From Bdellovibrionota bacterium (GTDB taxonomy: Bacteria > Bdellovibrionota_C > UBA2361), in the NCBI GenBank assembly GCA_044352465.1, contig JBILDU010000076.1, forward strand, positions 1 to 14,913: a stretch of 14,913 bases of DNA. The letters are read 5' to 3'. The notes below the pieces were generated by a model, which worked only from the letters and a program-made list of their open reading frames with translations, ran no database searches and was not told where the DNA came from. The number at the start of each line of letters is the position of its first letter. Position 1 is the stretch's first letter. A program made the position numbers and the translations under genes. Of the stretch, positions 7,178-10,787 are shown in pieces.

Positions 7178-7594
7178 ATGTATACCCGCATCGTTGCACT
7201 CGGAGCCCTTCTCACCGCACTTGGAATCATCATCGGTGCGTTTGGCGCACACGCTCTCAAAGGCTCGATTACCGAATACGGGACGGAAGTGTTTAAGACC
7301 GCGAGTCTCTACCACCTCGTCCATGGAGTTGGGATCATCGCCCTGGCCGCTCTGGGATCAGCCGGTGCTGTTCCCCACCGTATCGTCCAACGGGCGGTGT
7401 TTTTTTTCGTGCTCGGTATCCTCGTTTTTTGCGGTTCCCTCTACCTCCTGGCTATTACCGAGATCCGATGGCTCGGGGCTATAACCCCGCTGGGTGGGGT
7501 CTCCTTTATCGTAGGGTGGCTTCTCCTCGGTTTCGGTACCCTTTGCAGCCACAACGCCCCAACGCGAATTGACAATCCCCCCTCCGAAGGCTAG
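7178..7594 (+). CDS. DUF423 (YgdD/TMEM256) family membrane protein
   Basis: Motifs GAFGAHAL, YHLVH, FCGSLYLLA and GAITPLGG..FIVGW; four hydrophobic segments. Confidence 0.92.
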   Translation: MYTRIVALGALLTALGIIIGAFGAHALKGSITEYGTEVFKTASLYHLVHGVGIIALAALGSAGAVPHRIVQRAVFFFVLGILVFCGSLYLLAITEIRWLGAITPLGGVSFIVGWLLLGFGTLCSHNAPTRIDNPPSEG

Positions 7595-7597
7595 TTT
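7569..7597 (+). promoter_or_regulatory. sigma70 promoter for the tRNA-Val locus
   Basis: Perfect TTGACA (7569-7574), 17-nt spacer, TAGTTT (7592-7597). It overlaps the DUF423 stop codon and ends 13 nt before the first tRNA-like copy. Confidence 0.8.
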
Positions 7598-7606
7598 TAT
7601 AGCGTT

Positions 7607-7656
7607 TTTCGGGCGCTTAGCTCAGTTGGTAGAGCGTCAGCCTTACAAGCTGAATG
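7607..7656 (+). repeat. Exact 50-nt direct repeat: 5' part of tRNA-Val (nt 1-46 plus 4 nt of leader), second copy 7787-7836
   Basis: TTTCGGGCGCTTAGCTCAGTTGGTAGAGCGTCAGCCTTACAAGCTGAATG occurs at 7607 and 7787 (period 180). The first copy lacks the canonical T arm and 3' acceptor strand. Confidence 0.97.
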
Positions 7657-7741
7657 ACGCGGTTTATCGGACGGGAGCGAAGCGGACGGACGTCGTAACC
7701 GCGTAAAAGAGGGTCGATGCGAGCGAGCGAGCATCGAATCC
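7657..7741. repeat. Two adjacent inverted-repeat hairpins (REP-like)
   Basis: ACGCGGTT (7657-7664)/AACCGCGT (7697-7704) encloses GCGAAGC. TCGATGC (7714-7720)/GCATCGA (7731-7737) has the loop GAGCGAGCGA. Confidence 0.8.
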
Positions 7742-7790
7742 AAAAGTGACATTCAGTTCCCCGAAACTGGTGTCTATTTAACAAAATTTC

Positions 7791-7863
7791 GGGCGCTTAG
7801 CTCAGTTGGTAGAGCGTCAGCCTTACAAGCTGAATGTCACTGGTTCGAGTCCAGTAGCGCCCA
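7791..7863 (+). tRNA. tRNA-Val (anticodon TAC), CCA not encoded
   Basis: Acceptor GGGCGCT/AGCGCCC plus discriminator A; D arm GCTC-AGTTGGTA-GAGC; anticodon arm TCAGC-CTTACAA-GCTGA; T arm ACTGG-TTCGAGT-CCAGT. Confidence 0.97.
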
Positions 7864-8263
7864 TTCCTTCTTCCCCCCGATTAGAACTTCCCCCGATTCG
7901 ACCTTGGCGTCGTCCCTCGGCCGAGATTCGAATGACGGCCATGAAATACCTGACAGCCCAATCGTACAAACTTTAAGTCTATAACCAACGGGTGCAGCCC
8001 AAGCGTACTCCAGGTCTCCGCGCCTCTTTTACAGGGCATCTGACCAAACTGCGGAACTGTGCTCTGAGGATATTGCCGATGTTGAAGCACTCCCAAACTG
8101 CGGCTTTGGGGTCGTTCTAAAGCATTAAGAGTTTCTCTGTAAGAATTTTGTTTTGATTACTTGGCACCAACCGAGCGTCCTAATCTCTAACAACAAACCC
8201 ATCTTTCACGCCGACTTCCCATAGCCCCTGACCTCCAGGTCTCTGAGACTTTGAGAAGGGCAT

Positions 8264-8298
8264 AAAAAAACCCGGCCAAGGTTCTATTCCTGGCCGGG
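8264..8298 (-). terminator. Intrinsic terminator downstream of lon
   Basis: CCCGGCCA (8271-8278)/TGGCCGGG (8291-8298) stem with A7 at 8264-8270 (U-tract on the - strand). A second small hairpin GGCGCTC-act-GAGCGCC lies at 8305-8321. Confidence 0.88.
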
Positions 8299-8324
8299 CG
8301 TTAAGGCGCTCACTGAGCGCCGCT

Positions 8325-10787
8325 TTAGTGAGTCACATGACCCGAGGCTGGGGCCTTCTCTTTTCCGGCTCCCTCCTCACCCTCCTCACCACCAGCTTTC
8401 GGCTCGTGGAAGAGGTTCTCATCGCGGACTGACTTCCGATCGAGGAGCTTATCGAAGTCCTTTGCTGAGGTCGAAACGAGCGCCTCATAGAGGACCTCAT
8501 CGACGTGAGCAACCGGAATAAGCTCTAGATCTTTTCGCACCGTCGCTGGGATCTCCTCGATGTCGTTCTCGTTTTCTTTCGGAAAGAGGATCCGCTTGAT
8601 ACCGCCCCGGTGCGCCGCAAGCGCCTTTTCCTTAAGTCCGCCGATCGGAAGAACGTTACCACGCAGGGTGATCTCACCCGTCATCGCGACGTTCTTATCA
8701 ACCGGAATTCCGGTAAGCGCAGAGACAAACGAGGTCGCCATCGTAATACCTGCCGAGGGACCGTCCTTCGGGATCGCCCCTTCCGGAACGTGCACGTGGA
8801 TATCCACCTTGTCGTAGAAGTACCGCGGGAGCCCCAACATCTCTGCGCGCGAGCGCACATAGCTGAGGGCTGCACGAGCCGACTCTTGCATGACGTCCCC
8901 GAGTTTACCGGTGATCTGGAGTCGCCCCTTACCCGGCAGGATCGTCGTCTCGATAACAAGGAGTTCGCCCCCCTTATCGGTCCAGGCGAGGCCGGTCGTT
9001 GTACCCACGAGATTCTCCTCCTCCGACTTCCCGTAACGGAATTTCGGTTGACCCAAGAACATCGGGATATTATCAGCGGTGATCTTCACCACATGATCTT
9101 TCCCCTTCTCCACCACTTCCACCGCGGCCTTTCGGCACAACGTCGCGATGCACCGCTCGAGATTACGCACCCCCGACTCTCGGGTATACCGGCGCGCGAC
9201 CTCAATATAGGCACTGTCGTCGATTTCGACGTTCTTCGGCTCGAGACCGTTCTCAACAACCTGCTTCTCGTAGAGATACTTCTTCGAGATGGCAAGTTTC
9301 TCGAGCTCGGTGTACCCCGAGAGTCGGATGAGCTCCATACGGTCCATCAGCGGCTGAGGGATCGTATGCAGTGAGTTGGCGGTCGTCACAAACATCACCT
9401 TCGAAAGATCGTAGTCGCAATCGAGGTAGTGATCGTTGAACGAATCGTTCTGCTCGGGATCGAGTACCTCAAGAAGCGCTGAAGAAGGATCGCCTCTGAA
9501 ATCGGTCGACATCTTATCGATCTCGTCCAAGAGGAACACCGGGTTGCTCTTCCCCGCCTTCTTAAGCGACTGGATAATCTTTCCAGGCAAAGCGCCGATA
9601 TAGGTCCGCCGGTGACCACGAATCTCCGCCTCGTCACGCACACCGCCGAGGGCGACACGAACGAATTGACGATTGGTAGCCTTCGCGACCGACTTGCCGA
9701 GGGAGGTCTTACCCACGCCGGGAGGACCAACGAGACACAGAATCGGACCCTTCATCTTGCCAACGAGCTTTTGCACCGCCAGATATTCGAGGATGCGCTC
9801 CTTGACCTTCTCAAGCCCGTAGTGATCTTCTTCGAGCACTTCACGAGCCTTCTCGATATCGATCTGATCGTCAGACACCTCATTCCATGGAAGCGCAAGC
9901 ATCCAATCAACGTAGTTCCGCACAACCGTCGCCTCAGCTGACATGGGCGACATCATCTTCAGTTTCTTGATCTCCTTATCAGTCTTTTCGCGGGCATCTT
10001 CAGGCATATCCTTCGCCTTCAGCTTGTCCTCGAGCTCCTGAATCTCATTACGGAAATCATCTTTCTCGCCGAGCTCCTTCTGGATCGCGCGCATCTGCTC
10101 GTTGAGGTAGTACTCCTTCTGGGTCTTCTCCATCTGCTTCTTGACCCGATTACGGATGCGCTTCTCGACCTGAAGAATCTCGATCTCCGACTTCATGTGG
10201 CCAAGGATCTTCTCAAGGCGATCCTCAGGGTCGATCGTCTCGAGGATGTCCTGCTTGTCTTCGAGCTTTATGCTGAGCTGCACCACGATTGCATCAGCAA
10301 GGCGCGAAGGATCTTCGATCGCGTTTACCTGCATGATCATCTCGGGGTTAACCTTCTTGCCGAGTTTTACGTAGCTCTCGAAGGTGACGTTAACCGAGCG
10401 CATGAGCGCCTTAAGCTCAGTGGTGACCGCTGTGGACGGGATCAACTCCTCCGCCTCAACGAGCATGAAATCGTCCTCGGAGACGTAGCGCTTAATGCGC
10501 GCTCGGCTCTTCCCCTCCACCAGCACTTTAATCGGGCCATCCGCGAGACGGATGAGTTGAACCACCTCACCGAGGGTGCCTATCGTGTAGATATCTTTTT
10601 GCCCAGGGTTGCTTGTACGGGCATCTTTTTGCGCCGCAAGCATGATGTACTTATTCTCTTTTTGAGACTCCTCGATCGCTCGCACGCTCTTATCGCGTCC
10701 GACAAATAGCGGGACAACCTGTTGGGGGAAAACAACGAGCTCACGGAGCGCGAGCAACGGGACCGGATTAATCAAAGTCGCTTTCAT
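8325..10787 (-). CDS. lon: ATP-dependent protease La (LonA)
   Basis: Lon N-domain (LRELVVFP), Walker [10 protein letters not shown], Walker B LLDEIDK, catalytic KDGPSAG and GGLKEK; GAGAGG ribosome-binding site. Confidence 0.98.

Follow-up and report, generated by a model that had tools for sequence, protein, structure and literature searches.

A target-matching antisense in a small protein-less element lodged in a bacterial tRNA-Val gene

Upstream of the tRNA-Val(UAC) gene in a contig of a Bdellovibrionota genome lies a short segment that is, with good support, the target-matching antisense of a small, protein-less structured element lodged in that gene at position 46/47. The make-up of the element is equally well supported: a module of two hairpins (89 nt) is followed by the antisense and by a third hairpin, all set between two direct copies of the gene's 5′ part, so that the tRNA after it is intact. 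So, too, is the conclusion that the module family occupies exposed loops of many tRNA genes in the order. tRNA genes are classic landing sites for mobile DNA, and every such landing that we know of relies on a protein recombinase reading DNA. In contrast to these recombinase-dependent landings, the element described here is protein-less and carries a base-pairing copy of its own junction that changes with the host tRNA. As the overall explanation we lean, with somewhat more confidence than doubt, towards an antisense that acts as an address or splint for junction-specific recognition by a protein-less, co-transcribed element lodged in tRNA genes.

Results

The tRNA-Val locus and its partial copy

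The window, that is, the whole stretch of DNA that was analysed, is a complete contig of 14.9 kb (14,913 nt) out of a 3.1-Mb assembly (G000); the features of the locus are collected in Table 1. The tRNA-Val(UAC) gene at 7791-7863 is the sole full copy found in the assembly, and the remaining matches there, 75-78% identical, are other tRNAs. A repeat search of the window returned a direct repeat (7607-7656 and 7787-7836) whose arms are identical through 7656 and 7836 and diverge afterwards. The breakpoint of the partial copy accordingly falls after tRNA position 46 (46/47), in the variable loop, with an exact 46-nt suffix, and Rfam gave a weak tRNA match on the partial copy (7614-7679). A second copy of the tRNA 3′ part was searched for in the window, and none was found. 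The partial copy and the intact gene are separated by 134 nt, and this spacer (7657-7790) is unique in the assembly, where other copies were searched for genome-wide; the assembly holds one copy of the module only. The portion of the spacer immediately ahead of the intact gene (7775-7790) is not conserved between tRNA types.

Ahead of the partial copy, the promoter-like sequence and the DUF423 stop codon overlap. A promoter scan of 7450-8350 returned no site at the thresholds of the tool, and in relatives TTGAC(A/T)-17-TAATCT is found at the corresponding place, always 5′ of the partial copy. The neighbouring genes are housekeeping genes, with DUF423, motA/motB and alr on the plus strand and lon, clpX, clpP and tig on the minus strand; no integrase, transposase, reverse transcriptase or island gene was found among these neighbours, and no open reading frame inside the element. 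When 7550-7900 was searched against Rfam at E values up to 10, tRNA was the only match, with no intron or ribozyme core and no family for the module. Directly 3′ of tRNA-Val, two tandem 16-nt units (CCCCCGATTAGAACTT / CCCCCGATTCGACCTT) occupy 7874-7905.

Table 1 Features of the tRNA-Val locus in the window
Feature	Position	Strand	Remarks
Promoter-like TTGACA (7569-7574), 17 nt, TAGTTT (7592-7597)	7569..7597	+	by eye
Partial copy: 4 leader nt + tRNA-Val positions 1-46 (7611-7656)	7607..7656	+	100% identity to 7787-7836
Two-hairpin module, 89 nt	7657..7745	+	folds; covariance model R1, 107.6 bits
Antisense (putative "address"): exact complement of tRNA positions 40-51 over 12 nt (38-51 over 14 nt, with one G-U)	7745..7758	+	
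Hairpin 3: antisense paired to degenerate sense-like target copy (7765-7774)	7748..7774	+	-9.9 kcal/mol, z -3.13
Spacer ahead of intact gene	7775..7790	+	last 4 nt (7787-7790) part of direct repeat
Intact tRNA-Val(UAC)	7791..7863	+	ARAGORN; Rfam 77.6 bits
Antisense target in tRNA: anticodon-stem end, variable loop, T-stem start	7828..7841	+	straddles 7836/7837

The antisense and its possible partners in the window

The word AGTGACATTCAG at 7745-7756 is complementary at 12 of 12 positions to 7830-7841 in the intact tRNA-Val. With up to one mismatch allowed, it occurs at just these two places in the 14,913-nt window; shuffling gave an expectation of 0.03, and two or more occurrences were seen in 0 of 200 shuffles. 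Two further pairs, T7757-G7829 (G-U) and T7758-A7828, lengthen the duplex to 14 bp, and all 14 pairs are drawn in the fold of the 267-nt stretch. An earlier note on this DNA had proposed such an exact antisense, extendable to 14 bp with one G-U, and both the inverted-repeat search and the 267-nt fold bear it out; its placement of the target across the divergence point 7836/7837 also holds, since the direct repeat ends there, at tRNA position 46/47. The alternative 9-bp pairing that it described with 7648-7656 of the partial copy exists as well, formed by 7750-7758 with one G-U, and its closing stem belongs to the minimum-energy fold of the leader alone (7607-7790). When the piece 7640-7780 is folded alone, the antisense enters a local hairpin, without the closing stem to 7648-7656.

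Of the two halves of the antisense, the left one corresponds to the end of the partial copy, and the right one finds its match in the intact gene only. Because of this division, we read the segment as a candidate junction-specific address.

The antisense duplex is predicted at -21.5 kcal/mol when its partner is the intact tRNA, at -14.4 kcal/mol when it is the partial copy's end and at -11.2 kcal/mol when it is the sense-like arm of hairpin 3, values that ignore tRNA tertiary structure and modification. The whole precursor reaches -98.9 kcal/mol with the antisense on the tRNA, compared with -89.2 kcal/mol for leader and tRNA folded apart, again ignoring tertiary structure.

A conserved two-hairpin module

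Hairpin 1 of the module (7657-7704, apex GCGAAGC) begins right at the tRNA breakpoint, and hairpin 2 (7711-7741) carries the loop GAGCGAGCGA. One low-depth metagenome contig (run X8, depth 2.9) lacks 4 bases of this GAGC-repeat loop, at 7719-7722. Five copies of the module were used to build a covariance model of its two hairpins, model R1. Across 33 distinct copies, 20 of the 25 pairs have changed on both sides, and 92.7% of the module cells are paired, compared with at most 45% when the partners are slid, in an alignment that was fitted to model R1. The G-U pairs of the module lie on the tRNA-sense strand, and the plus strand folds better than the minus strand. These strand signals, drawn from predicted folds, point to a module that may act as RNA, or as a single strand, with the polarity of the tRNA.

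A local hairpin takes in the antisense in the minimum-energy folds of 12 of the 12 homologous spacers folded, with 5-11 antisense bases paired downstream and modest z-scores of -3.0 to +0.8.

The antisense follows its tRNA across loci

The test that the earlier note had called decisive was whether, in homologous spacers next to other tRNAs, this segment co-varies with the cognate tRNA. Hits whose bit scores equalled those of already collected places were omitted beforehand, being presumed the same records; of the 51 model R1 hits that entered the tally, two identical ones were dropped, leaving 49 distinct hits. A same-strand tRNA adjoins the module in 24 of the 49, where the module lies either no more than 150 nt upstream of an intact tRNA (17 hits) or downstream of one (7 hits). 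In another four hits the only tRNA is distant or on the opposite strand, and for 21 the sequence stretch examined contains no intact tRNA, many of these being at contig ends, in tandem arrays or beside masked bases.

Every one of the 17 upstream cases contains an exact antisense of 9-13 nt to the downstream tRNA, and in 13 of them the longest exact block spans the breakpoint. The four exceptions comprise a partial copy cut by the contig end, a tRNA-Pro case with a substitution beside the breakpoint, a tRNA-Met case in which a 20-nt antisense has a 2-nt central mismatch, and a module whose start was misplaced by the model. Three further loci, either farther upstream than 150 nt or newly fetched, were checked separately: a tRNA-Ile (14 nt, positions 40-53), a tRNA-Asp with a D-loop breakpoint (14 nt, positions 18-31) and a second tRNA-Asp (9 nt), in each of which the antisense spans the breakpoint. 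Taken together, an antisense of 9-14 nt is present in 20 of 20 modules upstream of an intact same-strand tRNA, and the block lies over the breakpoint in 16 of 20. Eight tRNA identities are represented (Val, Pro, Met, Trp, Thr, Ala, Ile and Asp), and three loops hold the breakpoints, namely D (20/21), anticodon (37/38) and variable (46/47).

In 3400 shuffles of the 17 homologous spacers, an antisense of at least 9 nt arose in 0.97%, the longest being 10 nt. Non-cognate pairings of spacers and tRNAs gave a mean of 5.95 nt and a maximum of 10 nt; this maximum probably stems from pairings between tRNA-Trp and tRNA-Thr, which by eye share that stretch. The predicted co-variation was thus found in 20 of 20 cases and across eight tRNA identities: judged by these comparisons of sequence, the antisense co-varies with its tRNA, and chance is excluded as its source.

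Some module copies carry no antisense, namely a copy inside the partial tRNA of the same-genus genome G001 (copy B), a copy at the 3′ end of a tRNA (L046) and three interrupted pseudo-tRNA copies (L034, L058 and L185).

Conservation of the antisense after insertion

The tRNA-Val locus is syntenic across another set of genomes, the genus g11, in which the loci that include the tRNA are of three kinds: filled loci, deletion derivatives (L107 and L119) and loci with a different leader. The two deletion derivatives have kept the antisense or its local hairpin, together with hairpin 2, and have no partial tRNA. Among the nine filled syntenic loci, the mean pairwise identity is 0.95 for the left half of the antisense and 0.94 for its right half, followed by the 3′ strand of hairpin 2 (0.83), the sense-like arm (0.82), the spacer (0.70), the loop of hairpin 3 (0.69) and the tail of the module (0.54). 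The right half pairs with the intact tRNA only and with nothing within the element. Two of the three antisense substitutions in g11 are A-to-G changes that preserve a G-U pair with the tRNA. The T stem reads TCACT in the genus of the window and TCGT in g11, and the antisense changes accordingly. In most g11 loci the partial copy is identical to the tRNA.

A strain variant recovered on lake metagenome contigs differs from the window by 16 substitutions and one indel in 7688-7816 (12% diverged), none of them in 7745-7756; taken alone, this unchanged antisense is weak evidence, the chance of sparing 12 of 103 positions being estimated at ~14%. In the same variant, T7758C together with A7765G preserves a pair of hairpin 3. 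Hairpin 3 is also preserved in L119, there by a C-G to T-A change that weakens the complementarity to the tRNA. On these sequence changes, L119 would count against pairing with the tRNA as the sole constraint on the antisense.

Other repeated sequences accompany these loci. A conserved motif (TCCCGCTCG[G/A]CGCT...) lies downstream of tRNA-Val in L004 (1760-2089), L108, L109, L114, L117, L118, L121, L125 and L003 (~560-630). Many g11 genomes, and G001 as well, carry the TCCCGCTCG motif and tandem units of ~100 nt after tRNA-Val irrespective of an upstream module; the window lacks the motif, whose reverse complement is similar to the AGCG-rich loops of the module. In the partial tRNA-Val copies of L029, L039, L168, L115 and L122, a ~19-nt insert (CCCGTG.TTTAGGGTGAGG-like) replaces part of the D arm, and in L126 a partial copy of positions 1-19 is followed by an insert similar to this one.

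Distribution of the module

Within the same order, model R1 detected the module in 25 of 91 genomes, MAGs labelled Bdellovibrionota, or in 17 of 55 among the high-quality ones, and the copies in these genomes are nearly always at tRNA genes. None of the 33 genomes sampled from other orders of the phylum carried it. A pattern scan of contigs from one genome per species returned 45 loci, of which the model confirmed 21; most were in records titled as Bdellovibrionota, Bdellovibrionales or Deltaproteobacteria MAGs, and a weaker, related form of the module occurs in records titled Candidatus Falkowbacteria and Gammaproteobacteria. A scan of metagenomes gave 41 loci, 13 of them model-confirmed. Phage and viral contigs gave two pattern matches, neither of which was confirmed by model R1 or had a tRNA.

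The whole architecture is present at 77% identity in G030, a genome of another family. A form labelled as CPR is mirrored, the order being an intact tRNA-Glu, a terminator, a 15-nt antisense across a T-loop breakpoint, the module and a 3′ partial copy. G001 carries the tRNA-Val unit and two more modules (L003, 854-942 and 1000-1272, minus strand). The second module is nested in the partial tRNA after position 26, without an antisense; the third, farther upstream, is truncated at its 5′ end and has ~190 nt of GC-rich hairpin sequence inserted between hairpin 2 and the antisense. On the metagenome contigs L134, L135 and L129, the 5′ flank of the module has no recognisable tRNA and shows a conserved CAGGGGTCGATTTGCGGAGCAAATCGG[C/T]GGG stretch instead; an Rfam search of these three copies without an adjoining tRNA found nothing.

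Spread within genomes and the ends of the duplication

The tRNA-Met and tRNA-Pro modules of genome G008 are mutual best matches at 84% identity, compared with only 66% between the Pro modules of two genomes, and a third module of G008 lies at tRNA-Ile (L183), its hairpin-2 core alike by eye. The Met, Pro and Ile copies differ in insertion loop and have entirely different antisenses. Because these siblings are alike and yet each has its own antisense, the module has spread within the genome, with the antisense apparently re-specified each time. The Ile copy is at a tRNA-Ile(GAU), which is followed by a tRNA-Ala-like start and may sit in the spacer of a ribosomal RNA operon; the duplicated promoter-leader copy there has diverged, and its tRNA part is identical.

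The upstream end of the duplicated 5′ part varies, lying at -4 in the window and, by eye, at about -3, -14 and -15 elsewhere. At the tRNA-Ile of G008 the duplication reaches at least -57 (by eye), diverged, back to a promoter-like TTGACT. The idea that the duplicate corresponds to a transcript fragment, running from transcription start to a cleavage site, was dropped because this duplication passes the promoter-like sequence. The reach of this duplication also argues for a duplication or recombination at the DNA level, with one precise end, at the junction of loop and module, and one loose end.

Neither an empty or joined form skipping the 180-nt unit nor an extra form was found among the contigs of four lake-water DNA metagenome runs. 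Among RNA data, two sludge runs contained 0.06 of the sequence words sought. Reverse transcriptases (PF00078) are not enriched in carriers of the module, being present in 7 of 25 carriers and 32 of 66 non-carriers among incomplete MAGs, and PF00078 was not found in the likewise incomplete MAGs G000, G001 and G030.

Discussion

The earlier note had left two interpretations side by side, a cis switch controlling the folding or processing of tRNA-Val and a record, inverted-repeat or guide-like in form, of the site that a tRNA-inserting element targets. The guide-like record is the one that fits best, given the block over the breakpoint in 16 of 20 cases and sibling modules with different antisenses; the switch fares less well and is weighed below. 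Under the address or splint explanation, the module would move among tRNA genes and, on moving, would have its antisense written from the new target, a step that we infer, while the 5′ part of the gene would be duplicated from a variable upstream point. The whole unit would be transcribed with the tRNA, on the same strand, as the leader of its precursor, and selection would then keep the antisense complementary. Precisely at the junction, the antisense may keep the element, whether RNA or single-stranded DNA, aligned with the uninterrupted tRNA sequence. The address would in that case serve insertion or homing, and any effect on precursor folding would be secondary. Several points temper this explanation. 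No enzyme gene was found in the element or among its neighbours, reverse transcriptases are not enriched in carriers, this genome has a single copy, the lake-water contigs showed no empty form, some module copies carry no antisense, and in L119 hairpin 3 is preserved at the expense of pairing with the tRNA. Moreover, a pre-existing guide alone cannot explain the new antisenses of the siblings, which counts against the address reading, and conservation in place fits a cis RNA function as well as an address.

Such a function could be that of a cis-acting RNA switch, in which the antisense would alternate between the partial copy as a decoy, the local hairpin and the nascent tRNA, would time or limit the folding of tRNA-Val and its processing by RNase P, and would be the function for which the element is kept. 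The three partners of graded predicted stability are in keeping with this, as is the predicted gain of 9.7 kcal/mol for a precursor with the antisense on the tRNA over parts folded apart; the right half of the antisense, which pairs with the intact tRNA only, is conserved in place, the element and its G-U pairs are on the strand of the tRNA, and the partial copies are still identical to the tRNA in most g11 loci. However, a regulator needs no placement of breakpoints in three different loops, and the family is patchy, occurring in 25 of 91 genomes and being lost or truncated in many species of one genus. Moreover, L107 and L119 retain the antisense or its hairpin without the decoy, and the fold energies ignore tRNA tertiary structure and modification. 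We therefore regard a switch as unlikely, if still to be reckoned with. A purely passive origin appears less likely again. By that account, a one-off template switch or break repair at the hairpin-rich insert copied bases of the opposite strand and duplicated the 5′ part, leaving an antisense with no present role. It would account for the distinct antisense of every new site with no need of a guide, and it would also accommodate the variable upstream end of the duplication and the internal mismatches of some antisenses, such as that at tRNA-Met (20 nt, 2 mismatches). A relic of this kind is hard to reconcile with the best-conserved non-tRNA block in g11 (0.94-0.95, against 0.54-0.70 elsewhere), with G-U pairs retained by A-to-G changes at two of three substitutions, with an antisense unchanged in a strain variant that has diverged by 12%, or with an architecture that recurs in 20 of 20 cases.

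The locus might also be a remnant of a classical integrase-borne island, that is, an attL/attR scar at a tRNA gene. A partial tRNA copy beside an intact gene is a hallmark of such islands, and Williams reportedly described it in 2002 as the hallmark of integration. An att scar typically consists of a duplicated tRNA 3′ part with integrase or island genes between or beside the repeats. Here, however, it is the 5′ and not the 3′ part that is duplicated, the copies are only 134 nt apart with no open reading frame between them, no integrase or island genes lie nearby, and the spacer holds a structured module that is conserved and recurs at many tRNAs. The att scar was rejected on these grounds, and we consider an island remnant highly improbable.

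Returning to the address or splint explanation, an antisense rule that holds for eight sorts of tRNA gene in related bacteria suggests a poorly understood means of targeting such genes or of controlling them. Should its role lie in insertion, the address would represent a new guide-directed form of DNA movement; should it lie in the precursor RNA, the address would represent a new class of cis-antisense control of tRNA maturation. A bolder idea, possible although on the doubtful side, is that a gene-less, structured RNA or DNA module forms a programmable element targeting tRNA genes, with its antisense rewritten for each target and with reliance solely on host enzymes or its own catalysis, which would also explain the tRNA-linked repeats (TLRs) of Escherichia coli, unexplained since 1978, and the CPR units.

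Comparison with known systems

In elements with tyrosine integrases, attP carries part of the tRNA. Like these integrative elements, the element in the window replaces the displaced part of the gene, so that a complete tRNA survives and a partial copy stays behind. In contrast to them, it replaces the 5′ part, has no integrase or cargo and amounts to an insert of 134-180 nt, and it carries a junction antisense, for which att sites have no need. A miniature inverted-repeat element (MITE) was also rejected. MITEs have terminal inverted repeats, a short target-site duplication of fixed length and many copies per genome, whereas G000 has one copy, the duplication is 50 nt long in the window and by eye of other lengths elsewhere, and the sole inverted repeat is derived from the target.

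Guide-bearing elements offer a closer parallel. The EBS-IBS pairings of group II introns, the bridge RNA of IS110 and the guides of IS200/IS605 each use a short segment complementary to both flanks of the target. These elements encode a reverse transcriptase, a recombinase or a transposase, and they cause no target duplication of tens of bases. The family in the window shares with them a segment that is complementary across the insertion point and co-varies with the target, as seen in 20 of 20 cases; in contrast to them, no encoded or linked enzyme was found for the element by open reading frames, by neighbouring genes or by the PF00078 test. A group I or group II intron, or another known self-cleaving or self-splicing RNA, was rejected because Rfam finds no such core in 7550-7900 at E values up to 10 and an intact tRNA follows; hammerhead-like and intron readings made by eye were dropped for want of Rfam support.

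In disrupted archaeal tRNA genes, exon sequence at the junction is paired with stretches of the intron or leader. The excerpted text of two articles on disrupted archaeal tRNA genes describes bulge-helix-bulge introns at non-canonical positions as well as split and permuted genes (PMC3978253, PMC4033280). Disrupted archaeal tRNAs and the family in the window have in common insertions at several loop positions of tRNAs. Unlike the archaeal cases, the element in the window resides in a bacterium, where an uninterrupted tRNA adjoins and no splicing is needed, and its duplex is a perfect one of 12-14 bp with no apparent bulge-helix-bulge geometry.

The nearest relatives in form are the TLRs of E. 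coli. As excerpted, the article on these repeats counts 22 TLRs at ten loci, states that the final 18-19 bp of a TLR exactly repeat the 3′ terminus of the tRNA or rRNA ahead of it, and names in those passages no known function except for the rrn-linked RrA/B/F (PMC8144298). Nothing found in the literature searched describes a duplicated tRNA 5′ part accompanied by an antisense of the junction; the TLR article was the sole related item. TLRs and the element in the window are alike in being non-coding, hairpin-rich, located on the tRNA strand of a tRNA operon, bounded by a part-copy of the cognate tRNA and often in tandem. A TLR lies downstream and copies the 3′ end, whereas the unit in the window lies upstream and copies the 5′ 46 nt; the window thus lacks a 3′-end copy, which the mirrored CPR-labelled form does have, and it shares with TLRs the position within a tRNA operon, on the same strand.

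An antisense to the cognate T arm, at or over the boundary of the copy, was found in several E. coli units. In K-12, one of 10 nt (68-77) is present in three of the three tyrV units (L127), and the tyrT-tyrV spacer (L127) has T-arm antisenses of 10 and 8 nt. Both ends of the lysine operon (L174 and L175) have a 13-nt antisense (49-61) spanning 58/59, and proK (L173) has a T-arm antisense of 9 nt. No antisense of at least 8 nt was found in any of the four short internal TLRs of the lysine operon or in two of three argV-type TLRs (L176). By eye, the E. coli units further resemble the module of the window in an antisense/sense-like hairpin and AGCGA-rich motifs. Model R1 gave no significant match at the E. 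coli tyrT locus (E 0.28). The Rfam family RF00391 (RtT RNA), which scores 101-137 bits at E. coli loci, has no match in the window at E values up to 10, nor in L004, L037, L079 and L160 at E values up to 1. As far as these sequence likenesses go, the element in the window looks like a 5′-side counterpart of the TLRs that stands outside that family. Whether the address acts in insertion or in the precursor, it provides a testable handle on the unexplained TLRs of E. coli, a tractable organism, because several TLRs show the same antisense rule.
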